From a virus: a DNA stretch of 64,000 bases. Position 1 is the first letter of the stretch; every line of letters begins with the position of its first letter. Made by a program: the position numbers and the translations under genes. Below are positions 8,001 to 57,603 of this stretch, in pieces. The stretch is from IMG/VR virus record IMGVR_UViG_3300032677_000006; one strand, 5' to 3'. The notes beneath the pieces are model-generated. The model searched no databases. It worked only from the letters and a program-made list of their open reading frames with translations, and was not told the DNA's origin.

Positions 8001-8432
8001 GGGACCGTTGCCGGTCTGCACCTGGGTGTTGTTGAGCAGCAGCGTCCAGGAGAAGGTCCCTGCCGCCTGCCCGGAAGCGCTGGCGGCGACAATGGCCGCC
8101 TCGCCCGGGTCGCCCGGGTCGAAGCTGACCTTGCTCCAGGTCACGCCGACATAGGTGGAACCGACGGTCGAAGCGGCGTTGACGGTAAACACCGCGTTCT
8201 GGTAGCCGAACTCAACCGGCACTGTGACCGTGATCGTGTGCGGCAGCGCCTGTACGGGCGTGAAAACAATCGGGCTGCTGACGCCGGAAGCAAGCGTGGC
8301 GTTGTTGCACAGCACCAACCAGCGCTTCGGAACCACTTGGGCGTTGTTGACGAACGCCTTAAGCTCGTAGCGGTGCTGACAGACCAGGGTGGCAGGCAGG
8401 GGCCTGCTATTATAGCGCAGTTCAATGACCAC
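5073..8432 (-). CDS. Large (1119 aa) beta-rich virion structural protein (baseplate/fibre-like)
   Basis: T/S/G/V/Y-rich, low charge, Ig/PKD-like segments; GTAGTTA motif 4 nt before GTG. Confidence 0.65.
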   Translation of the reverse strand: MVIELRYNSRPLPATLVCQHRYELKAFVNNAQVVPKRWLVLCNNATLASGVSSPIVFTPVQALPHTITVTVPVEFGYQNAVFTVNAASTVGSTYVGVTWSKVSFDPGDPGEAAIVAASASGQAAGTFSWTLLLNNTQVQTGNGPGVSIQSMESGLYRLQGTATCSDGTVLAFDSAVTVSGAVTNRSAVPLPAPSTSLVYLGDVYSDEFNGGPGTATYFPYQLISHTQDTYLLPGTTHYAAAVVNLADGTIPPEVVLRTKAANWALLGFPAGLQGEDVGYDYGIGMPPVPAPADYRVQSTVDAWLPRATDAGSASWLAFNFRVRLSCYRQVANIYQYTRCPYSAYPGGSGLRARRLAALFTNADLQLDVNYGKNRLGTGDAIISYSTPLTTNIPLMTLDVAGSPNSTPYYTNTFFTDSNNYAIYEAYGQPNVYAKAVAGIEGIRPAYFSLLTYDGYPLICNRVKRLYGSLVVYLVDGALYAGSVVTVTVWKTGSSASATFSGTVPVTVYANTASTFAQALVIPVNLSDYQFDETGVVIDFAVSESGAVQTALPSPVPVPVTSATSLYSTAYHPTVAFDGACYSNPVPVPIFVDGQSGPVVVVTGCQDPACGPQGLYCYAPVYGAGAPVQLIQPLGFPAPYVSYGTQPYSCYRLSSFLSEYSGTGPALVAYPNSVPCGTPYLYTECPVVPVPNPSESGADLEYQPAPTQMLVIYPPSSSPHAAVEYNNRYYSYTGTLLPSSYELVVSAGSVTPSLNCYGAAYSGTTQGSTYLYRDAETGVPVSVSFPHLDVGLPVYGVAASALDEGLVGATAGSATAVFNGDETYLFTSTGTVTMAVNVGLPGVYKELVVDHNGTEISHNLGVSTVKVLPLFPSDTVSLVLSDQNGMTGQFRGMPVDVSWTPQITLPRLYASVIYRLPSASALKALGFCGYTEQASYAFYDSLPATEPVSGLLNPDGLVTVVSQGTEYLLVAMSGTGDFGLPMPPNVTAYAGQLLSGRVQFNFYTGRSATGAHGEMDAWFSYSGSVPATLYTQYHTLNSAGVAMQAAITDTTRNAYTVLSGGFGHSPSRYSSSAGQLISAENTSDSVVVNGTQYSYVAPDYGLAYNVVSASAVTAEAISPD
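6402..6417. promoter_or_regulatory. parS-like palindrome inside a CDS
   Basis: TGTTCCACATGGAACG, 14/16 identical to TGTTCCACGTGGAACA. Confidence 0.5.
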
Positions 8433-8439
8433 GCCCTAA

Positions 8440-9054
8440 CTACGGTTCGGCGCTGTCTTTTATGACCTTGCCGTCCAGCCAGTCCTGGTGCGTGTAGCAG
8501 AACTCCTGATTGTTGGAAGTGCCGTCCTTCAGCCGCTCCACGAAGAAAATCGGAGTCAGCTTGCCGAGGTTGGCCACCACTTCGTCGCCCTCCTCCACCG
8601 GCTTGGTCACGGTCGACCCTTTCTTGAGCACCTTGAAGTAGATGAACTCCGGCGTGGACTGGCGCATGACATGTTCCGGCAGGATGATTGGTGAGCCGGA
8701 CTCGCGGAAAAAGTGCTTGAGCAGGACGTAGTCGCCCACCATCTCGAAATTTGGCAGCGTGACCTCGTCGCCGGTCAGCCGACCGATGATGTCGCCCTGG
8801 TGCAGATTCATGTAGTGCCTGCCGTCCAGCACGTACTTCTGCGTGTTCTCCATGACCGAGTTGATCTGGAACATCACGATGTCGCCGGGCTTGACGACCG
8901 ACGTCTTTTTGGGATCGGTGCCCACGGAGACCACTTTGCCCATCCGGTGCGTATCCGCCTGCTGGGCGGCGTCAGGCAGGATGATCTGCGACGAGGAGGA
9001 CTTGGGCCGGTAGTGTTCCACCAGGCAGCGAAAACCAAACATTTTTACATTCAT
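8440..9054 (-). CDS. groES: Co-chaperonin with two tandem GroES domains
   Basis: 'IILPDAAQ...GKVVSVG...VKPGDIVMF' followed by 'GDYVLL...IILPE...VEEGDEVV'. Confidence 0.8.
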   Translation of the reverse strand: MNVKMFGFRCLVEHYRPKSSSSQIILPDAAQQADTHRMGKVVSVGTDPKKTSVVKPGDIVMFQINSVMENTQKYVLDGRHYMNLHQGDIIGRLTGDEVTLPNFEMVGDYVLLKHFFRESGSPIILPEHVMRQSTPEFIYFKVLKKGSTVTKPVEEGDEVVANLGKLTPIFFVERLKDGTSNNQEFCYTHQDWLDGKVIKDSAEP

Positions 9055-10130: not shown

Positions 10131-10160
10131 AATCTGATCCTACTCTGTTGTATTTAGGCC

Positions 10161-10349
10161 ATGGACTTGAATAAATCTATAGCGACGGCTCAGCAGTTCA
10201 CCGCGCCCAGGCCGGACGGGCTGCCGGTGATCGACCGCTCCGCCCAGGCTGACTTCGGTCTGGACATGGCCCGCCGCGCCGCCCAGCGCAGCCAGCAGCC
10301 GGTGGACGCGCCCAAGCCGATGCCGCCCATCGTGCCGATGGCCAGTTAA
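10161..10349 (+). CDS. Small hypothetical protein (62 aa)
   Basis: GTATTTA motif 4 nt before ATG; fills the gap between genes. Confidence 0.55.
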   Translation: MDLNKSIATAQQFTAPRPDGLPVIDRSAQADFGLDMARRAAQRSQQPVDAPKPMPPIVPMAS

Positions 10350-11086
10350 ACCCCAAGAACGGCAGCTGGTCTGACTTCCAGCTTCGGATTCTGAAAAAAG
10401 TTTGGGCTGTCGAGTATGGCCAGCGACCGTTCGCGCTCCCAGGCGCAGTAGATGTTGGACCGAACCCGGGCCAGCAGCGAAGGCCGAACTCCGTCGTACC
10501 ACTTGAAATGGTGCGTATCTCCAAAATTAAGCGGTATTTCCATGCTGTTGTGGTGTCCCGACCGGATCGTCACGTCCCCTCGGTGCAGTCCAATCTTGTG
10601 GACATTTGCGCCGGACCATTTGGTCATGGAAGTCGCCCACGGGAATTGCGCATCCAGACTGACGTCCAGCTTCACCGGCGGCAGCGCCCCTTCCGGCGCA
10701 AACCGGTCCACAAACCGGCTGCGCACGACCTTATAGCCTTCCTGCTGGGCCTGGGCGGCCATGTCCGGAAAGGATTTGCCGCCGTAGTCGTGCAGTTCGT
10801 CCAGGTCGGCCACCAGAAACCATTCGTCAGCCGCCACGAACTCCCGGCGCGCCCGGTTGAGCGCCACTGTTTCGTCGGTTGAGTTGTACAGGTTGTACGT
10901 GCAAAACTGGTTTGGCCGCACGTGCCAGTCGAGTCCCTGGCTGTGTTTCGCCAGCTCAGCGTAGACGGGGCACTTAATCCCTCGCCACGCGGCGTACACG
11001 AACCGCGTCACTCCGCGCTGCTGGTAGTACTTCAGCAGGAACGGGAGCAGGTAGGTGCGGTCGTATACGGGTATTATCAGCGTCAT
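10346..11086 (-). CDS. Glycosyltransferase, GT-A fold (GT2/GT92-like)
   Basis: 'FLLKYYQQRGV', 'WFLVADLDELH' DxD motif, 'HHFKW'. Confidence 0.8.
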   Translation of the reverse strand: MTLIIPVYDRTYLLPFLLKYYQQRGVTRFVYAAWRGIKCPVYAELAKHSQGLDWHVRPNQFCTYNLYNSTDETVALNRARREFVAADEWFLVADLDELHDYGGKSFPDMAAQAQQEGYKVVRSRFVDRFAPEGALPPVKLDVSLDAQFPWATSMTKWSGANVHKIGLHRGDVTIRSGHHNSMEIPLNFGDTHHFKWYDGVRPSLLARVRSNIYCAWERERSLAILDSPNFFQNPKLEVRPAAVLGV

Positions 11087-11832
11087 ACTCCTATTTGACT
11101 TGCCGGTTCACTTTTGCACTTTGGGTCGCTCAGGTAATCCGGTGTTTCCAGCAGGCTCAAGGCTTTAGCCTGCTCCCAGGCCCAGTTGATGTGCGCGGCC
11201 AGCTGGCGCTCGTGCCTGCTCTTCAAGATTTCCTTTATGCCGCTGACCCACTTAAAATGATGGGTATACCCAAACGGAAAGCTCACCTCGTCGCACTCAT
11301 GGTGACCGCTGCGGATGGGCAGGCCGCCCTGGCATAGACTAACCTTAAGGTAGCAGGCTCCCATCCAGCGGGTAAACTGGGTCATGGTCGGAAACTGCTC
11401 GTCTAACGTCCGCTCCGGCTGGATGACCGGCAGCGCGCCGTCAGCGGCAAACCGGTCCCTAAACTCGCCTTGAACGCAGCGAAAGCCCGCCCTCTCCGCC
11501 ATGGCCGCAGCCTCCGCCAGGCTTTTCCCGTCGTAATAATGAAATTCATCCGCATCCGCCAGCACGTACCATTCTTCCGGCTCGACAAATTCGCGCCTGA
11601 TTTCGTTGAGGCCATCCGTTTCGCTGTAAGCGTAGTCTGACTCGGAGCACAGCACGGTCGGTCGCACGTGCCAGTCCAGCGCGCCGCTGAGGGCGGCAAC
11701 CTGAGCGTACACCGGATGACGGATGCCGTTGCACAGCGCGTAGACAATTCGCGTTACGCCCATCCGCGTGTAGTACCGCAGCACGTACGGCACCAGCTCA
11801 ACCCGGTCGTGCAATGTCAGGATCAAGGTCAC
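11083..11832 (-). CDS. Glycosyltransferase, paralogue of 10346-11086
   Basis: 'WYVLADADEFH', 'IRSGHH', 'HHFKW'; collinear with its neighbour. Confidence 0.8.
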   Translation of the reverse strand: MTLILTLHDRVELVPYVLRYYTRMGVTRIVYALCNGIRHPVYAQVAALSGALDWHVRPTVLCSESDYAYSETDGLNEIRREFVEPEEWYVLADADEFHYYDGKSLAEAAAMAERAGFRCVQGEFRDRFAADGALPVIQPERTLDEQFPTMTQFTRWMGACYLKVSLCQGGLPIRSGHHECDEVSFPFGYTHHFKWVSGIKEILKSRHERQLAAHINWAWEQAKALSLLETPDYLSDPKCKSEPASQIGV

Positions 11833-12659
11833 AGCAGGTACCCCTTGCTTTCGTACACGGCCCGGTTATCCGTCACCCAGCGCGGCAGCGGCGCGTCCGG
11901 CATCCGGTCGAAGATGAAGCCACCTTTAGGGTCCACCTGCCTGCCCAGCCGCCGCATGTCCACCGGCACGTCGCCTTGGAGGGCGTACAGGATCGGCAGC
12001 GTGTGCCGCCCGAAGCAGTGCGAGTAATTTTTGAGTTTGTACTGAACCCGGCCAGGACCTTCCGGACCCAACAAGTAGGAAAAGTGCCAGCCCGCGCGCT
12101 CCAAACGCTTGGCCAGCGGATAGGGGTCGCTCTTGTAGCTGAAGTGTTCAAACGGACGCAGCCGATGCACCGGATACTGGTTGTACAGCGACCCGGGTAC
12201 TAGATAAGGAGCCTTCCAGACTTTGTTGACGCACCCGTAATTCAGGTAGAAGTGAAAGAACGCCAGCTCCAGGCCGACTGCGCCGTCCCGAGGCCGGTAG
12301 TTTAGAATCGTCTGCGCGCTGATGATTTCGTCAGCGTCACAGATGCTAAACACGTCGAATTCCTTTAGCCTTGGCAGCACTTCCTTCAAGTAATCGCGCT
12401 GGTAGTTTTGGCGCGCCCAGGAGGCGGCCTGGGCATCTTCCGGCAGGTTGGGGCAGGGCGGCACCTCTATGTATACAATTTTATCGCGCCACTGCTCGAA
12501 CTCGTCGGCGTGCTCCTGGTAGCTGAGCCGCTTGGGCCTGCCCGCGAAGGTGACCCGGCTCTCCAGCACGTAGAAGCGGTCAACCACGCGGTACATCTCG
12601 TGCAGCCGCAGCTTGAGCAGCTCCAGCTCATTAAGCAGGATGGATGCGTTGATCACCAT
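11829..12659 (-). CDS. GT17 family (MGAT3-like beta-1,4-GlcNAc transferase)
   Basis: 'NELELLKLRLHEM..VVDRF.VLES..TFAGRPK', 'W.RQNYQRD', 'DADEI', 'GWHFSY'; start at ATG 12659. Confidence 0.85.
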   Translation of the reverse strand: MVINASILLNELELLKLRLHEMYRVVDRFYVLESRVTFAGRPKRLSYQEHADEFEQWRDKIVYIEVPPCPNLPEDAQAASWARQNYQRDYLKEVLPRLKEFDVFSICDADEIISAQTILNYRPRDGAVGLELAFFHFYLNYGCVNKVWKAPYLVPGSLYNQYPVHRLRPFEHFSYKSDPYPLAKRLERAGWHFSYLLGPEGPGRVQYKLKNYSHCFGRHTLPILYALQGDVPVDMRRLGRQVDPKGGFIFDRMPDAPLPRWVTDNRAVYESKGYLL

Positions 12660-15379
12660 AGCGGCTCGTCGATCAAAGACAGATACTCGTTGGACCAGTA
12701 CGGGTACAGTCCACCGGCAAAAGCCAGTTCCAGGTTGCGCAGGCTGAAAAGTTTCACCAGCGGTCCTTCGGAGTCCTGGTGCAAGTGGCACGCCTGCGGG
12801 TACAGCCATTCACTCTCCACCTGGTTTATATCCACCAGCGTGGGCAGCATGATTTCCCTGGCGCTGGGGAAGTTAAGCACCACCACGCACTTAAGCCCCA
12901 GCGCGGAAGCCAGGTGCATTGGCCCGCTGACAATGCCTAAAAACCATTCACTGCCGGACATCAAGGCAATGGATTCATCCAGGCTGCGACCGGTGCGGTC
13001 CTCCACCCCGTTCAGGTTGTGGCAGGTCTGGCCTATCTCCACAAAGGACATGTCGGCGCGGTGGGCGTCCACAAACTCCTGGATCACCTTGAAAGTCGAC
13101 GGGTACACTTCGCGCGCCCGGCCATGCACGCGCCGCCGCTGCCACTGGGCGTGCGCCCCGGGTTCAAAATGCAGCACGCAGCGGCCCGGCACCTTGTCCT
13201 GGGGACAGACCACCGTGGCCCGGGGCAGCAAGTCGGCCCGATAGCCCCATGCCCGTTGCAGGCGCTGCATCAAATGGCCGTTGCCCAGGTCGAAGGTCTT
13301 TTGCAAAAAGTCGGAAGACACCGGCGGCCTGCCGTCGTACGGCTTGTACCAGGGGTTGTGCTTGATCAACGTCTCAAACTTGGCATCGGCGTGAAAGATA
13401 TGCGTATAGCCGCCCTGCTCCGTAGAGACCCGGGGCAGGGAGGACATGACCAACATGTCGCCGATGCCGCTCTGGTAATTGGACAGCGCGTAATTGGTCA
13501 AGTCAATGAGCGGCTCTTTCGGTGCCGCTTTCATCCGGCGATAGTAATTCCGGATGTGGTCCACTACTTCGCGGGATTTGCGCTTGTGGCTGGTCCGGCG
13601 CAAGCTGGACCTTGCAACGGTTTCCTGGCGGAACAGCCGGTACGCCAACAGGTCGGCGCTGGCGCAGTCCTCCGCCTCCATGAGCTGGCGAATGTCCACG
13701 TCCGCCGTTTCCAGCAGGCTGCGGTGCCGCTGCCACCAGCCGTAGGTGAAAGCGTAAAACTCCACCTCCGGGCTGGGCACAGAATTGCGCTCCAAATCCG
13801 CCGAGGTATGCGTTCCCGGCATGGCCACTTGTCGGCGCAGGCCATAGAAACAGTCTGCTTCGCACAGCTTGGCCCGCAGAATGCGCTCAACATCCGGCAC
13901 GAAATACGTGTCACCGGGCGTGTAGACAATAACATCAATCGGTTCTGCTGACGTCAGTTTGGCGATGTCCGCCAGTGTGTTGCTGCCTGACAGCTGCCAG
14001 GGCGGCCAGGTATTGGACGCCTGCTCGTTTACCACTTCCGGATGCACGTGCCAGAACAGGCGGAACATCACGCGATTAACGGCAGTGTCCAAGGCGTCCG
14101 TGTCCAAGGCGTCCGTGTAGCGAAAAGTCTTGGCCAGGTTACAGCAGGGCACGGTGGCGCTCCAGGAGCCTGCCAGGGTGTTCAAGTAGGCAATCACTGG
14201 AATCTTAACTGCCTGCGCCAGGTGGAGGAAGGCGGTGTCCACGGTTATCAACAGGTCAGCCGCGTCCATCAGGGTCAGGAAATCAGTCAGCGTGGACGCT
14301 TTGACGTCATCCAGCCAGACTACCGCCGATCCGTACTTGGTGGCGATCCATTCCCGCAGCCGGACGGCGTGCGGAAACGGGCTGGACTTGCCTTGCAGGG
14401 CCACCAGGATCGTGGGCGTGCGGTTGCGCAGGTGAAGCTTGGCCAGCTCCAGTTCGCCCGCCAGGTCACGGCCATCCAGCACCAGCGGCAGCTTTCCGCG
14501 CAAAGGCAGCAGGCCCAGCGCGGCCCAGGGTTCTTCACAGTAGCTCCGGCACCTGTAGTCCATCGTGAAATCACGGGTACAGGGCTGCATGACCACCACT
14601 TCGGTATACCGTGTCGACGCCCATTCCAGCGCCGGTTGCGTCAAGTCGAACTTACCGGGATAAATGACCGGATTCCAGTAGCTGACCCAGGCCGCCGCAT
14701 CCGCAAAGTCCTGGCTGATCACCACGTTGGGCTTTTCGCCGGTAGCGTCGAACAAATGCTTGAAGATCGGCAGCACGTTCAGCAAGTCACCGTACCGGCC
14801 TAAAACCAGGTAGCAGCGGATGCTGTACTTTATCTCTGGCGGGAAAGGCCCGACCTTGAACGGGTGAGTAATAAGTCCTATCCGGTAGCTTAAACGCTTC
14901 GTCTGAATCAGCGTAATCGAAGGCACAAACTGTTCCGCGAAGGTACGCTCATTTCCCTCAGCGTTGTAGCGGATCAGACCCAGCGCAGAGCGGAAAAAGG
15001 CGAAGCAGGCGGCATTGTCGTCCGGCTGCTCGACGCCGGAAGCGCTGCTGACCAGGTGGAGACTGTTGGTGACTGCCCGCATGTGAAAGTCGATGTAGTC
15101 GGGGTCGTACCAGTAGTTTGGCAGCCAGGGGAAGCACCACTCGGCCTGGGCCAGCTCCAGGGCGGCGTTCTTAAGCTCCTGGATGCTGCCGCCGGACTCC
15201 ACCACCTTTACCTCCGGCGGCAGGCTTATGGCGCGTCCGCTGCCGTTGATGACGATCAAGCTTTTGAGCGGCCAGGTTTGCCGGATAAAGCAGAAGGCCG
15301 CGTTCATTGCGTTTTCCTTCAGGTCATCCGGTCCGATGACCATGAGTCCGTTTACCGAGGGTTGTTCAGGCCACGCCAT
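12653..15379 (-). CDS. Multidomain glycosyltransferase: degenerate GT2 + two GT9 (heptosyltransferase-like) modules
   Basis: 'LGRYGDLL...TVDTAFLHLAQAVKIP' and 'GIGDMLV...VSGPMHLASALG'. Confidence 0.78.
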   Translation of the reverse strand: MAWPEQPSVNGLMVIGPDDLKENAMNAAFCFIRQTWPLKSLIVINGSGRAISLPPEVKVVESGGSIQELKNAALELAQAEWCFPWLPNYWYDPDYIDFHMRAVTNSLHLVSSASGVEQPDDNAACFAFFRSALGLIRYNAEGNERTFAEQFVPSITLIQTKRLSYRIGLITHPFKVGPFPPEIKYSIRCYLVLGRYGDLLNVLPIFKHLFDATGEKPNVVISQDFADAAAWVSYWNPVIYPGKFDLTQPALEWASTRYTEVVVMQPCTRDFTMDYRCRSYCEEPWAALGLLPLRGKLPLVLDGRDLAGELELAKLHLRNRTPTILVALQGKSSPFPHAVRLREWIATKYGSAVVWLDDVKASTLTDFLTLMDAADLLITVDTAFLHLAQAVKIPVIAYLNTLAGSWSATVPCCNLAKTFRYTDALDTDALDTAVNRVMFRLFWHVHPEVVNEQASNTWPPWQLSGSNTLADIAKLTSAEPIDVIVYTPGDTYFVPDVERILRAKLCEADCFYGLRRQVAMPGTHTSADLERNSVPSPEVEFYAFTYGWWQRHRSLLETADVDIRQLMEAEDCASADLLAYRLFRQETVARSSLRRTSHKRKSREVVDHIRNYYRRMKAAPKEPLIDLTNYALSNYQSGIGDMLVMSSLPRVSTEQGGYTHIFHADAKFETLIKHNPWYKPYDGRPPVSSDFLQKTFDLGNGHLMQRLQRAWGYRADLLPRATVVCPQDKVPGRCVLHFEPGAHAQWQRRRVHGRAREVYPSTFKVIQEFVDAHRADMSFVEIGQTCHNLNGVEDRTGRSLDESIALMSGSEWFLGIVSGPMHLASALGLKCVVVLNFPSAREIMLPTLVDINQVESEWLYPQACHLHQDSEGPLVKLFSLRNLELAFAGGLYPYWSNEYLSLIDEPLW
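14085..14114. repeat. 15-bp tandem duplication (TDALD x2) in the GT gene
   Basis: gtgtccaaggcgtcc occurs twice in tandem. Confidence 0.8.
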
Positions 15380-15995
15380 AAGGGTATTCTCGCATCATGC
15401 TTAAACGCTGATTCTGGGTTAAGGCTCCGAAGTGGTGCAGCGGCTTTAGCCGCTCTGGATCGTACCACGGCATGTCTGCTATCCAGTTCGAGTCCAAAAA
15501 GGAAATCCGGCGGGCCACCGCAGGAAACTCGTTGAGCAGCCCCTTAATGGTGTTCTGCTCCCACTTAGGCCCTAAAGCCGCCCCGTAGCGGTCGTCGTCC
15601 TTGACGTCTCCGCACCGGCTAAGCGTAGGTAAAAACCAGTCGGTCCAGGCACACTTCTTAACCGCCAGCACGCAGGCGCACAGGCCGTTCCAGTCGGAGG
15701 CTCCCAGCAGGTCAAACTGAAGTTTGTCGCCCAAGTCGTCCACCAGCGCAAACGGACGAAGCAGCAGGCAGTCGGCGTCAATCCACACCGCCCAGTCCCC
15801 ATCCTGTAAATCCGACAGCGTCGTTTGGAGGGCGGCTATTTTGTTCCAGGACGGATGCACCCCTGGGTCCAATAACTCCGTGTATACGTCCAAGCCAACA
15901 CCCATGGCCGCCGCGTGCGTCCGCAGCGACTTGGCACACTGATCGCCCACCTGAGCGTAGCCCGCGTCGTATAGCGTAAGCAGCTTCACGTTCAT
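15366..15995 (-). CDS. GT34-like (GMA12/MNN10) glycosyltransferase
   Basis: 'HPSWNKI', 'WIDADC', 'WEQNTI'. Confidence 0.78.
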   Translation of the reverse strand: MNVKLLTLYDAGYAQVGDQCAKSLRTHAAAMGVGLDVYTELLDPGVHPSWNKIAALQTTLSDLQDGDWAVWIDADCLLLRPFALVDDLGDKLQFDLLGASDWNGLCACVLAVKKCAWTDWFLPTLSRCGDVKDDDRYGAALGPKWEQNTIKGLLNEFPAVARRISFLDSNWIADMPWYDPERLKPLHHFGALTQNQRLSMMREYPYGVA

Positions 15996-16777
15996 AGCTC
16001 GGCAACTTCCGACCGAATAAGTCGGCTGCTGGCGCTTTCGTCCAGGTTGGTGTAGTCGCGGTGAATGCCTTCCCAGTAATCAAAGCGCATCTCCCGGCAC
16101 TTGGTGTAGACCGCCATGCCGCGCAGGGTATGGTCATCCTTGCCGTGGTCCATGAAAACAGCTTCACCAACCCGTTTACAGCCAAAGGACGCGAAAGTTT
16201 CGTCCAGCCCCCTCAGATTAAAGAAAGTGCAACTGGTCGCGTCCCACGGCGACGTCGTGACCGGGCAGTGGATCAGCGGCTCGTCATTTGGCCCGTAGAA
16301 TCCAGATTCCACGACAATGATGCCGCCGGTCTGGGTCGCGCCCACGACGGCAGATATGCCATTGATTGGATACCGCAGGTGGTACAGGACGCCCATGAAC
16401 AGCACGGTGCGGAACTGGTTGTCCCGATCCAAGCTATACACGGACTTTTCCCGGATCGTCAGCTTGGACCCGCGTAGTTCGCGCATCAGGCCAATGCCTT
16501 CGCTGATGTTGTTATCAATGCCGGTGACTGGCTCGATGCCGTTGTCCTCCAGCCAAAAACTGAACATGCCGTCGCGACAGCCTATGTCGAGGGCCGGACC
16601 TTTAAGCAGCTTGCGCGCGTGCAAATCGTTCAGCTGCTCCTTGATCCAGTTCCAGGATTTCTCCAGTCCGAGACTGTGGCCGTGGGTGACGATGCTGGTG
16701 CCCGGCACTTCCATGGTGTGGTACCACTTAACCTTGTTCACTCTGACCCGCAGGGCTTCTTCGTTTAGGGTGTCCAT
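15992..16777 (-). CDS. Class I SAM-dependent methyltransferase (CmoB/DUF1698-like)
   Basis: 'WYHT', 'ALDIGCRDGMFSF', 'VLFMGVLYHLRYP'. Confidence 0.85.
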   Translation of the reverse strand: MDTLNEEALRVRVNKVKWYHTMEVPGTSIVTHGHSLGLEKSWNWIKEQLNDLHARKLLKGPALDIGCRDGMFSFWLEDNGIEPVTGIDNNISEGIGLMRELRGSKLTIREKSVYSLDRDNQFRTVLFMGVLYHLRYPINGISAVVGATQTGGIIVVESGFYGPNDEPLIHCPVTTSPWDATSCTFFNLRGLDETFASFGCKRVGEAVFMDHGKDDHTLRGMAVYTKCREMRFDYWEGIHRDYTNLDESASSRLIRSEVAEL

Positions 16778-18870
16778 GTGTCTTTAATGTTGTGTATTCC
16801 GGCGACCGCTCCGGCTACGAGCCTTCGCTTTTGGTAGTCGCGCTGGATAAAGCACTCGCCGTTAAAGGACAGCGCCTGGGTGACGGGCGAGAAGCGCTCC
16901 AGGTACTCCAGGCCGTAGGTCCGCGCCAGCTCCAGGCCGACGCGCATGTCCCAGGGCTTGTCGGTGTAGATTCCGCTTTTCCAGGCGGCAACCACTTCCT
17001 TGGTCCGGTAAATGGCGAAGCATCCGTTGGGAAACAGCGTCCACTGCTCGCGCGGCAGCCACTCGTCGCGCAGGGAGTAAATGTGGGCACCGGTCACCCG
17101 GTTATACTCGCGCACAATCAAGCGGCATATCGTGCGCACCCCGGGACCGGCAAATTGAGTGTGAAAGGGCACCGGGGTGCCTGCCAGCAAAAAGTCCGGG
17201 TTGTGGGCCAGCGCCTCGCGCAGCAGGCGCTCGTCCCAGGCCCCGCCTTTGACCCGGCAGTCGGGTTCAATGGGCATGAAAAACTCGGCGTCCAACTGTT
17301 CCGCCACTTTGATCACCTCGTTGAAAATACCAATGCCGGTAACGTGGGTGTTGGCTCCGCACCTGATCGGCTCGGCCAGCAGGTGCTGCGGCTGATAATC
17401 CGGGGTCTCGCTGACGTAATGCACCGGGAACGTCGGGGGATTGGCGCTTAAATTGCGGAAAAACACGTCATTGTGCCCGACTTCCGGCGGCGGCAGATAG
17501 CAGATACTGACCAGGCGCGGTTTACCGTGGATCAGGAGCGGAACGGAGGGCAGATCGGGCCGGGCCACGGAAAGGAAGGCTTCGCGGATGCTATTCTCCC
17601 ACAGCGTAAGCTCGATCCAGGGACAATGAAAGACCACGTTCTCCACCCGGCCCGAGCATTCCCACTTGGGCCTTCCGAAGTGTATGGACGGCGTGTTGGT
17701 CGCCCGGTTCAGGTGCAAAATGGCCGTGTCGGCACAGACTAGCAGTTTCGCATTTTCCAGCAGCAGCAGAAAATCCGCAAAGTTGTCCAACCGTACCTCA
17801 GAAATGTCTACAACCGACCAGCCCCATTCCCGGCAGAGTTCGGCCAGCAACTTTTGCACCCAGGCAGCCTCAGCATCGGTCGGCGGCGAGGAATGGCTTT
17901 TTAAGCAGGTGACCACGTACGGCGAGTCGGGGTTGAACCGGTCGAACACCGCCGTCTCGGCGGTCGCGTTTCGACGGTCAAACACCAGCGGCAGCTTGCC
18001 CCACTGCTCCAGGTAGCCAAGCTTCTCCCACTGGGCTTTCAGAAAGTTAGCGCCGGTCTTGCGATTTTTAGACGTTCCAAAAAACATGCAGTTGGTCGCC
18101 TTAAGCCCGGTGCCCTCGACTTCCTTTACCGCCGATTCGGCGTCGTGAAGGCTGCCTTGAAACAACACTGGCTCCACGTAGCTTACCCGTTCCAGTATGG
18201 CGGCAAACTCCGGGCAGACCATCATTTTGGGCGCGATGCCGCTGCGCAGAAAGAGCGCCCGGCAAACCGGCAGCACGTTAATGATGTCACCGATGCGCCC
18301 CAAATTTACGATTACTGAGCCGTCCGGCTTGGGCGACGCGACCGTCAGCTTGGGCGCTTCCGCGTCTCGGACCTTGGTCTCCGACTTAACGTGGTGGGCC
18401 AGGACGCGGTCGGAATGCACCGCTACCGGGGTTCCCAACTGACCCAGAAACAGGTGCTCGTAGCCGTGGTCGTCATAACGAATCTTGCCCAGAGCTGCCT
18501 TGGCGTAGCCGCAGAAGCGCCGGTCCTGGCCATACAGCAGCACGTTTGCGCCGTTGGCTTTGCCCAGCAGGGTGTCGAGGTATTCAGGCGCATACCAGGC
18601 GTCCGGCAGCCAGTTAAAAATCCACTCGCCAGTGGCCAGCGCCAGCGCCTGGTTGCGCAATTCGCCGTAGGGCAGAGGGAGACCGACCACTTCCTGAATA
18701 TCGGCGTTCGGCGGAGCCAGGGCGACACCGGTGCTGTTAACCACGATCAACTCTTTTACCGGCCAGGTCTGGCGAATAAAGCAGTAAATCGAGTTTAGCG
18801 CCGCGTCCCGTAAATCACAGGGGCGCACCACCATTACCGCCGAGACAAAACGATGTTCAGGCCATGCCAT
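16765..18870 (-). CDS. Multidomain glycosyltransferase (degenerate GT2 + GT9 + C-terminal GT-A-like), paralogue of 12653-15379
   Basis: Shared MAWPE start, CFIRQTWP, LGRIGDIINVLP, GKLPLVFD, DTAILHL. Confidence 0.75.
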   Translation of the reverse strand: MAWPEHRFVSAVMVVRPCDLRDAALNSIYCFIRQTWPVKELIVVNSTGVALAPPNADIQEVVGLPLPYGELRNQALALATGEWIFNWLPDAWYAPEYLDTLLGKANGANVLLYGQDRRFCGYAKAALGKIRYDDHGYEHLFLGQLGTPVAVHSDRVLAHHVKSETKVRDAEAPKLTVASPKPDGSVIVNLGRIGDIINVLPVCRALFLRSGIAPKMMVCPEFAAILERVSYVEPVLFQGSLHDAESAVKEVEGTGLKATNCMFFGTSKNRKTGANFLKAQWEKLGYLEQWGKLPLVFDRRNATAETAVFDRFNPDSPYVVTCLKSHSSPPTDAEAAWVQKLLAELCREWGWSVVDISEVRLDNFADFLLLLENAKLLVCADTAILHLNRATNTPSIHFGRPKWECSGRVENVVFHCPWIELTLWENSIREAFLSVARPDLPSVPLLIHGKPRLVSICYLPPPEVGHNDVFFRNLSANPPTFPVHYVSETPDYQPQHLLAEPIRCGANTHVTGIGIFNEVIKVAEQLDAEFFMPIEPDCRVKGGAWDERLLREALAHNPDFLLAGTPVPFHTQFAGPGVRTICRLIVREYNRVTGAHIYSLRDEWLPREQWTLFPNGCFAIYRTKEVVAAWKSGIYTDKPWDMRVGLELARTYGLEYLERFSPVTQALSFNGECFIQRDYQKRRLVAGAVAGIHNIKDTWTP

Positions 18871-18887
18871 GCAGCTTTAGAACTGAA

Positions 18888-20027
18888 TCAGCTGCCGGTT
18901 CGGAGTAGTTGCAGTCCCGACAGGTACCCATAGACCGCAAAGCTCATTTTTCCCGTGCTGTTGACCGCCGCCGAAACGGCCACGTAGTTCTGACCGGCTA
19001 CAAAAGACGTAGCTGCCGTGTTGTTGACCGTGTGCAAGACAGGAGCACCGCCATTAACTCCAATGTAGACGCTGCTGGTGCCCGAGGCGGCTGCCGAATA
19101 GACGTACAGGGTGTAGCTGCCGGGCGGGATGTTGCGCAGGTTGAACGTGTTGGGCACGGACGGACCGCCTGCGTACGTGTTCAACATGGGATCAAAAGTG
19201 CTCTGGGTGCCTGCCGCCGATGTCAGCGGCGCAACCCGTTCCAAATAAACGACGCTCAGGCTGCGGTCGTAATTCAGCAGCGGAATCAGCGGAGCACTGG
19301 AAAACACCCAACCATACCCGTATCCGTAGCCGCAGGTATGGTCCACCGTTGCCGTATAACTGGCGGGAGTGTAGACATTCCAGTAGTCGCTGGCGGTTTT
19401 GCCGACCTGAGCCGGACCCTGCTTGAGACCCGTGCCGTTAAAATCGACATTGACCAGCAGCTGCGTCGCGTCCGGCGTAAAATAGCGCTTCCCGCCGACC
19501 AGGGTGGCTGCCGTGCCACCACTCAGATCGCGCGGCAGGACGTCAGGAGCGAACCGGATCATGTCGTACTGGCCCAGGACCTCGGCCCCATCTTGCACCA
19601 AAAAGGTTGGATTTAGCCGCAGAGGGTCCAACGGGACGGTGCCGACGAGCACTCCCATCCAGATTTGGCTGGTTTTCGGCGGTCCAACCAGCGCCCCGCG
19701 CGTAACGGGCTGCCCCGTGACCAGCCCGGTGGAAGCCAGGCCACTAAGCGTCACCAGCACGCCCAGGCCGCAGTCAATGGTGACGTTGGTGGCGTACGTG
19801 GCCAGCAGCACCGGGTCTTCCGTGTAAAACTCCGGGAGCGACGTCCATATCCGGCTGACCGTCCCCGTGGCCGGAGCGATGGTGCTCTCTCCCGCCGCCA
19901 GCTGCACGGTGATGCCCAGGTTGACGCTGCCCTCGGCGGTGTACGCGTACAGCAGGGTGGCTGACCGGGAAAACGGCGGTCGAAACTGGGTGACCAGGTT
20001 GATGACCGACTGCGAAAGGTTGCTCAT
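18888..20027 (-). CDS. Putative virion protein: degenerate M23-like N-domain + carbohydrate-binding-like C-domain
   Basis: 'APATGTV', 'VTGQPVTRGALVG', 'PLDPL' M23 scaffold without the Zn-binding His residues. Confidence 0.5.
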   Translation of the reverse strand: MSNLSQSVINLVTQFRPPFSRSATLLYAYTAEGSVNLGITVQLAAGESTIAPATGTVSRIWTSLPEFYTEDPVLLATYATNVTIDCGLGVLVTLSGLASTGLVTGQPVTRGALVGPPKTSQIWMGVLVGTVPLDPLRLNPTFLVQDGAEVLGQYDMIRFAPDVLPRDLSGGTAATLVGGKRYFTPDATQLLVNVDFNGTGLKQGPAQVGKTASDYWNVYTPASYTATVDHTCGYGYGYGWVFSSAPLIPLLNYDRSLSVVYLERVAPLTSAAGTQSTFDPMLNTYAGGPSVPNTFNLRNIPPGSYTLYVYSAAASGTSSVYIGVNGGAPVLHTVNNTAATSFVAGQNYVAVSAAVNSTGKMSFAVYGYLSGLQLLRTGS

Positions 20028-20893
20028 GAGGGTATCGTCGGTGCGCCGTTAAAGTTGAGGGTGGACGTGTACCGTTCCACCGCTTCCGGGTAAAACGTGG
20101 CTTCCAGGGTCAGCAGCTGGGATTCGGTGTAATTCAGGTCCGACAGCTTGTACCCGGCGCACCAGCACTGCCGCAGCACCCACTTGGTGTGTTCCTCCAT
20201 CTGAGGCAGGGTGGCTGCCGCCGTGGCGGACGGTGCGCCCTGCGGACCAGCGGGCGTGCTGGTGGCCGCGCCCTGGTTCGACTGCCTGGCCGCCTGCTGC
20301 TTCAGCAGGCTGTTGTACTTGGCCACCGCAGCGAGCTGGGCACCGTTTACCTGGCCGGTGGTCGTCGTGCCGCTCAGCCCCTGGACGATATTCTGCATGT
20401 TGCCGCGCAGCAAGCTGACGTTGATGTCGAACCGGCAAGTCGTGCTAAAATTGCTGTCCAGGGTGAAATATCCCTGGGGACTGAGGCCCGCAAACCCGCC
20501 GTAGCGTGCCCCGCGCCCCGCCCGCGTCAGCGCCACCCAGGCGTCCAGCAGGTCCGCCGTGTCACTGCGGTCGGTGCCCTCCCAGGTGTCCACCACAAAG
20601 GTGATTTTAGCGGCTTCCACCGGGTCGTCCCAGTTGGGCATGTTGTACGGCACCGAGTCCCGGCGGAACACTTCCGCCTTGAGCCTGACTTCAGGCAGGC
20701 TGACGCTGCGCACAAACTGGCGCAGCTGCGCGTTGAGCTTGACGTTGGCGGCGCTCTGGATGCCGCCCGCCGCCAGGGTCAGGTCCACCAGGAACAAGTC
20801 CGAGCGCTGCGGTTCCAGCACGCTGGACGTGTTGGCGTCCGTCTGCCGTCCCCAAAGGTTAACCAGGTTCTTATTATCAGCGTCACGCGACAT
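20024..20893 (-). CDS. Tail tube-like baseplate protein (gp54/gp48-like)
   Basis: 'LEPQRSDLFLVDL' matches the tube's 'LDLQRSDLWKVNI'; 'SDLNYTES..LTLEATF'; start at ATG 20893. Confidence 0.65.
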   Translation of the reverse strand: MSRDADNKNLVNLWGRQTDANTSSVLEPQRSDLFLVDLTLAAGGIQSAANVKLNAQLRQFVRSVSLPEVRLKAEVFRRDSVPYNMPNWDDPVEAAKITFVVDTWEGTDRSDTADLLDAWVALTRAGRGARYGGFAGLSPQGYFTLDSNFSTTCRFDINVSLLRGNMQNIVQGLSGTTTTGQVNGAQLAAVAKYNSLLKQQAARQSNQGAATSTPAGPQGAPSATAAATLPQMEEHTKWVLRQCWCAGYKLSDLNYTESQLLTLEATFYPEAVERYTSTLNFNGAPTIPS

Positions 20894-20912
20894 TTGAGTA
20901 ACTACCTTGAGC

Positions 20913-21890
20913 ATGAACCTTAACTTTACGTATGCCGGAACGGTGGAGCTAAACCAGGACCCGCTGAAACTTGGCCGGTTGAAGGTTCGCGTCCCGCACG
21001 TCTATGGCACCAGCGCCACCGGCTCGGGCTACATCGGCACCGGCGACCTGCCATGGGCCATGCCAGCAGGCATGCCTGCCGGTGGCAGTGCCCTGAGCGG
21101 GGGCTTCTCCCAGATACCGGAGCCGGGCGATCCCGTCTGGGTTCGCTTCCTGGATGGGGAGCCGGAAAAGCCCATCTGGGAGTGGGGCATGCAAACCATG
21201 AACGGGGCGCAGAAACTGAAGCTGCACACCTATGACATCGGCACGCCCGTGGGCAAGCCCAACCGCACCGTCTGGACCCGCTACAGCCACGCCATCGAGA
21301 TGAACGAGGGTTCGCTGATCGCCACCACCAGCGCCGGGTACCGCATTGTTCTGACCGACGACACCGAGGTCGGCTCTTCGGACGGCAACATCATGGTCAC
21401 GACGCCCAACGGCAACTACTGCCAGTTCGACGATCTGGACGACACGGTCAAGTTCAACGTGCTCCAGGACCTGTACTTCAATGTCTACGAAGGCGTGACC
21501 GGCATCTCCAACAGCTTTTCCTGGCAGACCCTGGCCGATGACTTCAGTGTAGACAGCGGCGGCGGCATCGCCCTGACCGCTTTCGACAACATTGACATTT
21601 CCACCGTCGGCGACATCACCATCGACAGCCTGAGCGACCTGAACCTGACCACCGTCGGGGAAATGGTGCTGGGCTTCACCAACCTGACGCTGGGCATTGG
21701 GGCTACCCAGCAGGCCGTTTTGGGCAATTACCTGGTGGAATGGATCAATTCCCTGTTCGTCTGGCTGGCCGTTCACACGCACACCAGCAGCAATCCAGGG
21801 AACCCGACGTCGCCGCCCACGCAGCCCACGTCCTCGATCACCCCGGAGGCCACGCAGCTGCTTTCGCAGACCGTCACCGTGGCAGACTGA
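20913..21890 (+). CDS. Baseplate central spike (gp5/VgrG OB-fold + beta-helix, HxH apex)
   Basis: 'DPLKLGRLKVRVP', 'LPWA', 'PEPGDPVWVRFLDG', C-terminal 'HTH...PTSPP'; no lysozyme domain. Confidence 0.88.
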   Translation: MNLNFTYAGTVELNQDPLKLGRLKVRVPHVYGTSATGSGYIGTGDLPWAMPAGMPAGGSALSGGFSQIPEPGDPVWVRFLDGEPEKPIWEWGMQTMNGAQKLKLHTYDIGTPVGKPNRTVWTRYSHAIEMNEGSLIATTSAGYRIVLTDDTEVGSSDGNIMVTTPNGNYCQFDDLDDTVKFNVLQDLYFNVYEGVTGISNSFSWQTLADDFSVDSGGGIALTAFDNIDISTVGDITIDSLSDLNLTTVGEMVLGFTNLTLGIGATQQAVLGNYLVEWINSLFVWLAVHTHTSSNPGNPTSPPTQPTSSITPEATQLLSQTVTVAD

Positions 21891-21911: not shown

Positions 21912-22676
21912 ATGGCTATTCGCACCAACCTGAAATCACTGGTCCCGCGCCGAGACGCGTACAAGCGGGAAATCACCCTGCTCTCGCGCGGCTACACCAG
22001 CCCCACGGCCTGGCCCGGCGGCAAATTGACCGTCTACCCCTGGGACAATGAAGTTGACGACTGGTTCGTGGAGAACGCCCGCAAGCTGACCAAGGAGGAG
22101 CTGATCTTTAGCCTGTTCGAGCGCTGCTGCAACCTCAACGGCGGCAGGCTGGACGATTTTGTCGCCGACGAGATCAACCTGATCCTGCTGGTGTCCCGGG
22201 CGCGCCTGGCCAACGACCATATTCGCTACACCTCCGTGTGTCCGCACTGCGGGGCCAAGAAGGACGAAACCATCGCCATTCCTGACGAGCTGGAGCCGGT
22301 GGGGGTCAAGGAGCCGGATTATCCCGGTTTCGATGTCATCACCCTGCCGGACGTCCAGGACGTCGTCAAGGTGCGCCCGCTGTTGGTCAAGGACGAGCGC
22401 GCCATCGTGGGCCGACCCACCGTGGAGCGCGCCCGGGTGCCTGACACACTGCTGCGCACCCTGATGCGGGTCGTCACCATCAACGACACCCGACCCGACG
22501 CGCTGGAAGAGCTGATCCAATGGTTTCGGGCGCTGTCGCCAGCGGATTCCAAATTTCTCGAAAAGGAGGGCCGCCGCATCACGCCGCATCTGAACACCGC
22601 CGTGCCACACAAGTGCGACGAGTGCCTGAAGACCTTCGACCACGTGCTGGACCTGGGTCAGGAGTTTTTTCGTTGA
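21912..22676 (+). CDS. Baseplate hub / tail assembly protein, T4 gp26-like
   Basis: Two CxxC pairs (CPHCG, CDEC), 'VRPLLVKDE', C-terminal EFFR. Confidence 0.75.
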   Translation: MAIRTNLKSLVPRRDAYKREITLLSRGYTSPTAWPGGKLTVYPWDNEVDDWFVENARKLTKEELIFSLFERCCNLNGGRLDDFVADEINLILLVSRARLANDHIRYTSVCPHCGAKKDETIAIPDELEPVGVKEPDYPGFDVITLPDVQDVVKVRPLLVKDERAIVGRPTVERARVPDTLLRTLMRVVTINDTRPDALEELIQWFRALSPADSKFLEKEGRRITPHLNTAVPHKCDECLKTFDHVLDLGQEFFR

Positions 22677-23655: not shown

Positions 23656-23669
23656 ACCAGTACCTACAC

Positions 23670-29052: not shown

Positions 29053-29112
29053 TTAACTACGGGGGTGCCTCTGGGCACCTCCCTGGGTTTCTTTGGCTGT
29101 TCCGTTGTTCAT
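29053..29112 (-). other. Possible 19-codon leader ORF with a GC hairpin upstream of the sheath gene
   Basis: ATG 5 nt after GTAGTTA (29118-29124); ends inside a second GTAGTTA (29054-29060). Confidence 0.35.
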
Positions 29113-30184: not shown

Positions 30185-30195
30185 GCCCTAAATAC

Positions 30196-41911: not shown

Positions 41912-41984
41912 ATATTTCGTTGCCCTAACTACCGGCGCAAACAGGCCGCTTTTGGCCCTGGTAAAACTTTGTTAAAATTTTATG

Positions 41985-45996: not shown

Positions 45997-46003
45997 AGCT
46001 CTG

Positions 46004-48037: not shown

Positions 48038-48091
48038 GTTTTCCTTTCCCAGTCCCACCGGTTAATTCCAGCAAGTCCGGTTACACGCCGA

Positions 48092-48955: not shown

Positions 48956-49019
48956 GTCGCCAGTATAGAACACACACAGACGAGCCGTGGCCAGCTGAAA
49001 AATGACTAAACGTCAGCAT

Positions 49020-57592: not shown

Positions 57593-57603
57593 ACCTGGGC
57601 TAA

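Follow-up and report, generated by a model that had tools for sequence, protein, structure and literature searches.

A variable cassette of soluble glycosyltransferases travels with accessory tail-type genes in uncultured T4-like jumbo phages

The window analysed here is a stretch of 64,000 nucleotides from a virus record (IMGVR_UViG_3300032677_000006), and its carrier, an uncultured jumbo phage, is T4-like and very divergent. Between positions 10346 and 18870 the window holds an island of seven minus-strand open reading frames (ORFs) whose neighbours overlap by 4-14 nt, which bears out the initial annotation of seven tightly overlapping genes on one strand. The products are two GT-A paralogues, a GT17 and a GT34 glycosyltransferase (GT), a SAM methyltransferase and two paralogous multidomain proteins of 701 and 908 aa (GT701 and GT908) with GT9-type domains; Pfam/NCBIfam searches and structure comparison recognised ~8 GT domains in the island, plus one methyltransferase. 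On the primase side the insertion site is bordered by a conserved 62-aa gene (10161..10349, plus strand), which converges on the end of the island, has a GTATTTAG motif upstream and whose homologues adjoin the primase in relatives both with and without the island. At the other end, a GTTCTA motif (18878..18883, minus strand) lies 7 nt before the GT701 ATG, inside the 17-nt gap after the gene of protein p379. The same motif, as GTTCTW, recurs in five relatives ahead of the first gene of the island, at a distance of 6-7 nt, and it also precedes Cpn10, Mre11-like and Rad50-like genes. Because this start-proximal motif is its own, seen also at the chaperonin and Mre11/Rad50-like genes, and because some relatives carry the island in the opposite orientation, it cannot be counted simply as a piece of the tail operon. 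Moreover, the signal is that of chaperonin and recombination genes and not the structural-gene motif, thus the island is not demonstrably a late gene set.

The last island gene (10346..11086, minus strand, 246 aa) has no Pfam match of its own, but it shares 45% identity with its neighbour (11083..11832, minus strand, 249 aa) and keeps the DLDE motif. The neighbour is GT2_4-like and matches Glyco_tranf_2_4 (PF13704) with E 1.1e-5 and 26.3 bits, just under the cut-off of 27.5; the two had been annotated as GT-A paralogues, and their mutual identity agrees with this. The next gene (11829..12659, minus strand) exceeds the gathering score of PF04724 (81.8 bits against 26, E 6.3e-23, profile positions 73-273 of 348), which places its product in CAZy family GT17. 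Its ORF is open to 12809, but translation most likely begins at the ATG at 12659, which overlaps the upstream stop (ATGGTGA) and gives 276 aa. The GT34-like protein (15366..15995, minus strand, 209 aa) likewise exceeds the gathering score of PF05637 (E 3.5e-8, 33.9 bits against 23), but only over profile positions 134-209 of 238, so that its CAZy GT34 membership has partial profile coverage; homologues were found in the islands of four relatives. The class I SAM-dependent methyltransferase (15992..16777, minus strand, 261 aa) matches PF08003 (E 9.8e-11), PF13489 and PF08241, and its NCBIfam matches (TIGR04290, E 1.8e-18; CmoB-like, E 7e-12) are all below the equivalog cut-offs. The GT17, GT34 and methyltransferase assignments of the initial annotation thus hold.

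GT701 (16765..18870, minus strand), the product of the first island gene, and GT908 (12653..15379, minus strand) are paralogous, with the first ~400 residues common at 32% identity. Residues 1-180 of GT701 form a partly degenerate GT2-like domain, a hallmark of all islands, in which the DxD position reads PD/PN (DD in some relatives), and a GT9-like region follows at residues ~185-400. The Pfam scores of both regions are borderline (GT2, 22 bits; GT9, 21.4 bits), and residues 410-701 match no family. The GT2'-GT9-GT-A architecture proposed earlier is therefore kept in its first two parts, with scores of that order, and its C-terminal GT-A domain gave no hit. GT908 scores 38 bits against PF01075 (GT9) over the whole protein and 25.1 bits over residues 181-400 (cut-off 22), and its structure model, which has pLDDT 70-93 in residues 620-900 only, contains a full GT9 fold at residues 624-900 (Z 15.3 to WaaC, 13.8 to WaaF and 13.1 to TibC). 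The family model and the GT-B fold place GT908 in CAZy family GT9, while the GT701 domain is borderline at 21.4 bits against 22. Hence, in the GT2'-GT9-GT9 reading of GT908 both GT9 regions stand, and the N-terminal GT2-like region is paralogous to that of GT701; residues 401-610 matched no family and are poorly modelled.

Fold comparison brings GT908 close to two groups of heptosyltransferases. The LPS inner-core enzymes WaaC/WaaF (CAZy GT9) share the Pfam GT9 hits and include the best structural match, WaaC (to GT908 residues 628-895; Z 15.3, 228 residues aligned at rmsd 3.4), but identity is 8-12%, all NCBIfam equivalog cut-offs are missed by a wide margin, and the GT9 domain is here fused into multidomain phage proteins associated with tail-type genes. 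The TibC/Aah autotransporter O-heptosyltransferases (PDB 4RAP/4RB4) are cytoplasmic and have the same GT9-type GT-B fold, and TibC was the top Foldseek hit of GT908 (E 1.2e-6). However, identity as a BAHT protein O-heptosyltransferase (TIGR04414) was rejected (E 0.069, 12.1 bits against a cut-off of 200), and the GT9 domain is structurally at least as near to WaaC/WaaF, which score as high or higher, as to TibC. Unlike TibC-type fibre systems, the locus has no collagen-like or Ser/Thr-saturated fibre.

None of the seven island proteins contains a 19-residue window with Kyte-Doolittle hydropathy ≥1.9, no flippase-like ORF was found in the window, and no multi-pass membrane ORF lies in or near the island; the initial annotation had likewise seen no obvious membrane anchors or flippase. 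By Pfam/NCBIfam matches and hydropathy the island thus encodes soluble GTs of the virus that need no membrane or secretory machinery. Gtr-type seroconversion (O-antigen modification by GtrA/B/C) was discarded as a candidate, since it would call for a membrane flippase, a bactoprenol glucosyltransferase and a polytopic GT there.

Upstream of the island lie two genes that had been described as tail-like, and both descriptions are confirmed. Protein p379 (18888..20027, minus strand, 379 aa), an accessory tail protein, adjoins tube-fold and hub genes and combines a LytM/M23 domain at residues 2-141 (M23 profile E 3e-5; Z 16.8 to the LytM domain of DipM) with a malectin/CBM-like beta-sandwich at residues 185-379 (Z 11.8-7.5 to malectin-like, CBM35 and CBM6 folds); the p379 model has pLDDT 77. 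Its LytM domain is degenerate, with metal ligands replaced, and judging by these replacements is non-catalytic ("dead"). The adjacent core gene p296 (20024..20914, minus strand), present in nearly all relatives, has a tail-tube fold (Phage_TTP_2 / gp19 clusters, TM 0.55-0.60, ESM Atlas) and is a candidate gp48/gp54-like initiator. On the other side of the island, beyond chaperonin (Cpn10) and primase genes, lies the gene of F1119 (5073..8432, minus strand), a 1119-aa accessory protein and a candidate glycan acceptor or fibre. The late-type motif GTAGTTAG stands ahead of it at 8436-8443; this motif, GTAKTTAR, precedes F1119, the sheath gene and other tail-region genes (16 sites against 1.4 expected). 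One F1119 homologue carries PKD domains, and the N-terminal ~160 aa, an adhesin-type repeat module, recur as tandem repeats in giant proteins. Both p379 and F1119 look structural, and F1119 would be part of the virion. No acceptor motif (Ser/Thr tract or sequon) was identified in F1119 or p379.

To place the island in its lineage, ~70 related phage contigs were compared, from uncultured T4-like jumbo phages with genomes of ~200-230 kb whose hosts are probably Gram-negative soil or water bacteria. The site of the island is fixed across these relatives, between the conserved 62-aa gene and the baseplate genes, and its content varies widely, with many sugar-type O-methyltransferases accompanying GT2, GT4, GT9, GT17 and GT34 enzymes. 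At the same site in 11 relatives we found TylF (three times), FkbM (twice), many class I methyltransferases, GT2, GT4, GT9, GT34, GNT-I and GH130, and such O-methyltransferase and multi-GT content is the profile of a diversifying glycan pathway. Among the 24 loci in which all three states were readable, the island, p379 and F1119 were all present in 10 and all absent in 14, and no locus was mixed. On a five-protein tree this distribution takes at least 5 changes for the island and for p379 and at least 4 for F1119, and the independent contrasts on supported branches were concordant in 3/3 cases; the co-occurrence nevertheless amounts to 3-5 independent events only (sign test p 0.25). A reverse search starting from F1119 found GT genes adjoining the primase in 10/10 informative loci, and added further contigs, some with GT17 genes in a tandem row of three and others with a pair of GT34 genes. 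Linkage alone is insufficient for the association of F1119 with the island because Cpn10 and primase intervene. As a point against a tail-module glycan, GT2 and GT9 genes also exist elsewhere in relatives that lack the island. The GT2 gene annotated at 57604 beside the head genes is a candidate match only (E 0.002, below cut-off).

Since the island always travels with two extra tail-type genes across relatives, the enzymes most likely add sugar to part of the phage's own particle. In the comparative data the island is linked with structural-type genes of the phage and not with genes for DNA modification, and we suggest with middling confidence, from these gene associations, that the seven genes serve glycosylation of the accessory tail module and not of the capsid. 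The idea of a dedicated soluble multi-enzyme cassette for building and methylating a glycan beside tail genes is supported by enzyme families and hydropathy; of the earlier alternatives of a capsid or tail glycan, the tail agrees with the co-occurrence of p379 and F1119, and nothing ties the island to the capsid. The seven genes would be a cassette that is autonomous and shuffled horizontally, and its soluble cytoplasmic enzymes would draw on host nucleotide sugars and SAM and build a probably O-methylated oligosaccharide on the phage-encoded accessory tail module, with F1119 and/or the baseplate-proximal p379 as the likeliest acceptor. Progeny virions would then carry a glycosylated fibre or decoration, and the glycan would differ between related phages. 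We infer that a protein is the acceptor, as well as its identity, the sugars used and the transfer of methyl groups onto sugars; the branched, methyl-capped form first proposed for the glycan is putative. An extended form, in which the island glycosylates F1119, the malectin/CBM-like domain of p379 binds this glycan and the dead LytM domain anchors p379 at the baseplate, would dock an accessory fibre to the tail through contact between sugar and lectin, and the specificity of this contact would diversify along with the enzyme set. We regard this form as quite improbable, and are aware of no report of a tailed phage whose own glycan serves as a joint in assembly.

Three other products of the island need to be weighed against a glycosylated tail module. 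The enzymes may make a product that is neither protein nor DNA, i.e. a free or small-acceptor methylated oligosaccharide or glycoconjugate of the kind related bacterial clusters may make, which might be a ligand of the p379 CBM-like domain or act as an assembly or protective factor. The C-terminal domain of GT908 is 40-52% identical to bacterial proteins whose genes lie in islands of low GC3, alongside further GT9s, a GT2-methyltransferase fusion and B12-radical-SAM enzymes, and these bacterial islands hold no obvious acceptor protein; a radical SAM gene occurs in one phage island as well, and the carbohydrate-binding-type fold of p379 suits such a product. However, the constant company of the 1119-aa F1119 would be unexplained, carrier or export functions are not encoded and the product of the bacterial clusters is itself only putative, and we consider this reading unlikely.

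Remodelling of the host envelope, in which the soluble enzymes would add to or change the infected cell's LPS core, or some other glycolipid made in the cytoplasm, is also rather unlikely. It could mask the receptor of p379/F1119, giving superinfection exclusion or keeping progeny from sticking to debris, and co-occurrence with receptor-binding-type proteins would also be expected if the enzymes mask their receptor. The best Z-scores of the GT9 fold, to the LPS heptosyltransferases WaaC/WaaF, and the non-structural-type start motif of the island fit this reading too. WaaC-type core-LPS enzymes are soluble or peripheral and rely on the host flippase, hence the missing membrane anchors do not argue against LPS-core remodelling. 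On the other hand, Gtr-type membrane enzymes, a flippase and lipid-carrier enzymes are all absent at the island, the islands are rich in families atypical of LPS core (GT17, GT34, GNT-I and TylF/FkbM methyltransferases), and we know of no lytic myovirus that rebuilds LPS core with so large a cassette.

DNA hypermodification, in which the enzymes would glycosylate modified phage bases to evade restriction, is very improbable. Phage GT-A/GT-B enzymes, sometimes several near replication genes, do glycosylate DNA, and heptose or Kdo-type sugars are among those attached; such pathways are reported to be usually clustered with a base-hydroxylating enzyme (bioRxiv 10.1101/2023.12.21.572611). In this phage the island adjoins the primase and shares its start motif with recombination genes, and a PurZ-like gene and a Dam-type methylase in the genome mean that the DNA may be unusual. 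Against this, the window ORFs scanned include no thymidylate-synthase-type or TET/JBP gene, the window and near-complete island-bearing relatives have no 5mYOX, ThyS-type or C5-methyltransferase partner, and PF00303 (thymidylate synthase) and PF12851 (TET/JBP) are absent from two near-complete island-bearing relatives (G003, 89% complete; G005, 93%), which weakens DNA glycosylation, although the PF12851 half counts for little because that search was blank in control genomes too. ThyA-family genes are present in relatives without the island. Moreover, a DNA product does not predict the link to two structural-type genes, and at least 8 GT domains are far beyond the need of the DNA glycans known to us.

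The locus thus presents a swappable glycan-building and methylating cassette that is genetically tied, across a whole lineage, to an accessory tail module with a lectin-like protein. As far as we know, experiments have shown phage-encoded enzymes to glycosylate virions in just a few actinobacteriophages, whereas large multi-enzyme systems are those of giant viruses that infect eukaryotes. Should the island make a virion glycan, the range of complex glycans built by viruses would come to include phages whose hosts are probably Gram-negative bacteria of soil or water, dozens of relatives would offer a natural system for comparing glycan with tail-protein diversity, and the islands would be a source of compact multidomain soluble GTs (GT9, GT17 and GT34 types) for glycoengineering.

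A close functional parallel is chlorovirus PBCV-1, whose capsid protein is glycosylated in the cytoplasm by multidomain GT and GT-GT-methyltransferase proteins (PMC7826918). As with PBCV-1 A064R (GT-GT-methyltransferase) and A111/114R (three GT domains), the enzymes here are virus-encoded, soluble and cytoplasmic, independent of ER/Golgi or membrane, with transferase domains fused in one protein and a methyltransferase in the set, and here too the enzyme set differs between related viruses. The PBCV-1 glycan has been solved chemically, whereas the glycan of the present system is predicted from genes; the system uses GT9, GT17 and GT34 families in a bacterial host, and the linked partner is a tail module and not the major capsid protein. 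A phmmer search of GT908, GT701 and GT17 against PDB chains gave no relevant hit; remote homology within the GT-A fold may still exist. Glycoproteins have been detected in jumbo phage XacN1 (PMC5852040). For mycobacteriophages (Che8, Corndog, Myrna; Freeman et al. 2023, as described in PMC12619734), capsid and tail-tube glycans are described, and, as proposed here, phage GTs presumably modify virion proteins of the phage itself. Those phages are actinobacterial siphoviruses with one to few GTs acting on C-terminal tags of capsid or tail-tube subunits, whereas the present system belongs to a T4-like jumbo phage and would direct ~8 GT domains to accessory proteins rather than to capsid or tube subunits.

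The initial annotation had read 10346-18870 as seven tightly overlapping same-strand genes for glycan enzymes, and the ORF positions together with the family matches confirmed this: the seven genes of the island lie on the minus strand, with neighbours overlapping by 4-14 nt. GT17 matched PF04724 (E 6.3e-23), GT34 matched PF05637 (E 3.5e-8) and the class I SAM methyltransferase matched both PF08003 (E 1e-10) and TIGR04290 (E 1.8e-18). GT-A paralogue 2 matched PF13704 slightly below the cut-off (E 1.1e-5), and paralogue 1, which has no family match of its own, is 45% identical to it. The GT17 gene most likely starts with the ATG at 12659, which overlaps the stop codon of GT908 as ATGGTGA, and the longer ORF reaching 12809 is probably a false extension. 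The reported lack of membrane anchors also held, with membrane-like segments in 0 of the 7 island proteins, and transmembrane-like stretches were found in only two ORFs of the window, 38885-41125 and 59056-59382. The first of these (minus strand) encodes a 746-aa protein without a family match that is strongly hydrophobic in two segments (residues ~465 and ~552); no other sizeable protein of the window is membrane-like, and this one is possibly a tape-measure or ejection protein. The extra GT2 gene proposed at 57604 came down to a weak match, under the cut-off (E 0.002).

The two multidomain glycosyltransferase-type proteins of the island, GT908 (908 aa, 12653-15379) and GT701 (701 aa, 16765-18870), are 32% identical across their first ~400 residues. 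This shared part consists of a GT2-like domain of ~180 aa (PF00535 was sub-threshold in GT701), whose DxD position reads PD in GT701 and PN in GT908, and a GT9-like domain scoring 25.1 bits in GT908 and 21.4 bits in GT701. Moreover, the C-terminus of GT908 is a complete GT9-fold domain. The AlphaFold model of GT908 (mean pLDDT 56) was poor outside residues 620-900 and reached a pLDDT of 70-93 at residues 624-900, and the modelled domain aligned with WaaC at Z 15.3 (rmsd 3.4, 228 residues), with WaaF at 13.8 and with TibC at 13.1; it failed the TibC/Aah model (TIGR04414), and no collagen-like fibre was seen at this locus. The Pfam search gave no match for GT908 residues 401-610 or GT701 residues 410-701; it thus lent no support to the GT-A domain that the initial annotation had placed at the end of GT701, or to an extra GT-A-like segment suspected from alignment motifs at ~440-600 of GT908.

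A joint scan covered 53 island ORFs of 11 relatives. Methyltransferases were represented by Methyltransf_11 (10 ORFs), TylF (3) and FkbM (2), and glycosyltransferases by GT2 (6), GT4 (4), GT34 (2), GT9 (2) and GNT-I (1), together with DUF273, GH130 (2) and radical SAM (1). Only the ~180-aa GT2-like domain occurs in every island, where it is encoded first, either free or fused. The island measures 8.5 kb in the window versus 4.4-6.7 kb in relatives because of two internal duplications, GT-A1/GT-A2 and GT701/GT908. The C-terminal domain of GT908 shares 40-52% identity with proteins from soil bacteria such as Verrucomicrobia, Mesorhizobium and Acidobacteriota. These bacterial homologues are encoded in low-GC3 islands that contain two or three GT9 genes, a fusion of GT2 and methyltransferase, and genes for B12-binding radical SAM enzymes, for example in a Verrucomicrobia MAG (L008, 6873-12645) and in Mesorhizobium sp. 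CA14 (L010, 1600-8909). A GT9/radical-SAM-type cassette is thus common to soil bacteria and these phages. TIGR04290, the best NCBIfam model of the island methyltransferase, and the bacterial GT9/B12-radical-SAM clusters possibly form part of a 'rhizo-twelve' cassette. Outside the island site, each of the five large relatives carries 1-2 GT9 genes as well as GT2 genes, whether or not it has the island; thus the whole lineage has glycosylation capacity, to which the island is an accessory addition. In relatives of both kinds, an open frame of 390-440 aa that matched the GT9 family was found 2-7 kb beyond the portal gene (G003 at ~75.9 kb, G005 at ~186.1 kb, G006 at ~65.6 kb and G008 at ~37.2 kb); this frame may encode a core glycosyltransferase of the lineage, placed close to the head genes, and the equivalent site here precedes the window start.

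An IMG/VR search with the hub protein yielded 63 related loci, to which the window's proteins were compared by tblastn; a single-sequence locus search with GT908 returned no loci, and an alignment-based search succeeded. The backbone order is portal ... Mre11-like, o186, [F1119], Cpn10, primase, s62, [island], [p379], p296, hub, baseplate protein, RNase H ... tube, sheath, in which brackets mark the accessory elements. Upstream of the island in the window are the same-strand genes p379 (18888-20027) and p296 (20024-20914), and downstream are, in order, s62 (a small conserved plus-strand gene, 10161-10349), the primase gene (phrog_47), a Cpn10-type co-chaperonin gene and F1119 (5073-8432). Among the loci in which all three states were readable, island, p379 and F1119 were all present in 10 (window included) and all missing in 14, with no mixed case. 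In relatives without the island, primase-s62 lies 200-600 bp from p296, and o186 adjoins Cpn10; since s62 is kept in loci with and without the island, the insertion point is fixed. When five core proteins were concatenated for a maximum-likelihood tree (47 rows), at least 5 changes were needed for the island and for p379, and at least 4 for F1119. Independent contrasts on well-supported branches were concordant in 3 of 3 cases (sign test p 0.25, with significance unreachable for three pairs). The reverse search from F1119 gave 12 loci, and GT genes were found beyond the primase in all 10 in which that DNA was visible; two new contigs from this search carry three tandem GT17 homologues (L088) and two GT34 homologues (L094). 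Because two core genes part F1119 from the island, physical linkage through a single insertion is insufficient to explain this pattern.

The core neighbour p296 was grouped among tail-tube-fold proteins in the ESM Atlas (Phage_TTP_2/gp19; TM 0.55-0.60). For p379, a model built from 16 homologues (pLDDT 77) predicts a LytM/M23 domain at residues 2-141, with Z 16.8 to DipM and 16.0 to Csd3 and EnvC, and the profile of this domain matched PDB M23 proteins at E 3e-5. The metal ligands are gone in the p379 family (N..T stands in place of HxxxD, and HxH is lost), so the domain is non-catalytic, like DipM, EnvC and SpoIIQ. Residues 185-379 are modelled as a beta-sandwich that aligned best with malectin-like domains and carbohydrate-binding modules: the FERONIA malectin-like domain at Z 11.8, a pectate-lyase CBM at 9.9, and CBM35, CBM6 and malectin at 7.5-8. 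The 576-aa p379 homologues of two relatives (L041 7439-9169 and L035 7445-9175) have a ~190-residue insertion between these two domains, which looks like a second lectin-type module. The island enzymes could make a non-protein product, which the lectin-like domain of p379 would perhaps bind, and we regard this as unlikely.

F1119 (1119 aa) had no match in Pfam, PHROG or PDB searches, and its family counts ~76 representatives at E <= 1e-30 among 1.84 billion cluster representatives. Its N-terminal module of ~160 residues (residues ~15-190; window 7863-8390, minus strand), for which neither a Pfam nor a PDB match was found, is repeated in tandem up to 20 times within giant proteins (2,000-7,000 aa), consistent with an adhesin-type module; one F1119 homologue contains PKD domains. 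A prohead-protease-type N-terminal propeptide was considered for F1119 and dropped, as the N-terminus varies among homologues. PHROGs gave zero matches for the seven enzymes, p379, p296 and F1119, and PDB sequence searches with GT908, GT701, GT17 and the F1119 profile returned nothing useful. Remodelling of the LPS core or another part of the envelope, matched to the receptor of the p379 and F1119 tail proteins, is a further reading that we find improbable.

Two different start-proximal motifs were found. In the window and in five relatives (L020, L025, L031, L034 and L052), GTTCT[AT] stands 6-7 nt ahead of the first island gene's start codon; it is retained in L020 and L052 too, where the island and p379 have opposite orientations. 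In the window, its sites at 3291, 9062, 18878, 21898, 36055 and 44826 lie 6-9 nt (mostly 6-7) before the starts of, in this order, the Mre11-like, Cpn10, GT701, one baseplate, Rad50-like and one small gene. With 42 copies of the hexamer versus 36 expected there is no overall excess, so the signal lies in the position, which suggests near-leaderless transcripts. The 8-mer GTAKTTAR occurs 16 times in the window versus 1.4 expected (at least 16 in 0 of 100 shuffles), nearly always directly upstream of gene starts and often containing the TAG or TAA stop of the prior gene; examples are 8436-8443, 29053-29060, 30188-30195, 41925-41932 and 57600-57607 on the minus strand and 10150-10157 on the plus strand. 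It precedes sheath, F1119, s62 and several unassigned genes of the tail-gene region, as well as p296 in L043, and is probably a promoter or restart signal of the structural-gene class. By its GTTCT[AT] motif the island thus belongs to the 'chaperonin/recombination' signal class and forms a unit of its own, rather than simply extending the tail operon.

Pfam matches in the window include a T4-type portal (70-2094), the major capsid protein gp23 (51364-52833), a gp5-like hub (20907-21890), a T4 baseplate protein (21912-22676), a prohead protease and a tail sheath. No deposited phage is close, since megablast with the island and tblastn with GT908 gave zero matches in 50,697 deposited phage genomes and the portal protein is only 21-26% identical to those of known phages. 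Membership of the 'moraphage' jumbo lineage, for which Bacteroidota are predicted as hosts (PMC12619734), was judged unlikely for a window of ~60% G+C. An HNH/endonuclease VII-like gene (280 aa, 22852-23694, minus strand; phrog_1035 E 2.7e-18) lies between the baseplate and RNase H genes; in related phages it lies at other sites or is missing, and its product is probably a mobile homing endonuclease. A PurZ-like adenylosuccinate-synthetase homologue of 325 aa (45067-46044, minus strand; PF00709 E 6.6e-26) hints at 2-aminoadenine in the DNA, and a low-G+C island at 46004-48973 (minus strand; 0.51-0.53 versus 0.60) encodes a 684-aa GHKL/HATPase_c protein and a D12 (Dam-type) adenine methyltransferase.

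The reading that fits best, to which we give about an even chance, is a phage-made, probably methylated glycan on the accessory tail module, which the soluble and numerous island enzymes would build. We favour it because these enzymes belong to oligosaccharide-building families, because the gene content of the island turns over rapidly and often includes sugar-type O-methyltransferases, and above all because of the island's association with two accessory structural-type genes. The capsid had also been proposed as the glycan site, and nothing that we found implicates it. DNA glycosylation is very improbable: such phage pathways are usually clustered with a base-hydroxylating enzyme (10.1101/2023.12.21.572611), none was seen in the window, and both thymidylate-synthase-family and TET/JBP matches were absent in the near-complete island-bearing relatives G003 (203 kb, 89%) and G005 (211 kb, 93%), the TET/JBP half of this test being weak because the model matched no control genome either, and ThyA-family genes being present in the complete island-less relatives G006 and G007.

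For a glycan on the tail module, precedents exist among virion-glycosylating viruses, to whose enzymes PDB sequence searches with GT908, GT701 and GT17 detected no homology. The proposed system resembles mycobacteriophage virion glycosylation, and glycoproteins have been seen in the jumbo phage XacN1 (PMC5852040). It likewise resembles the glycosylation that chloroviruses carry out in the cytoplasm with multidomain GT and GT-GT-methyltransferase proteins, the target there being the capsid (PMC7826918).
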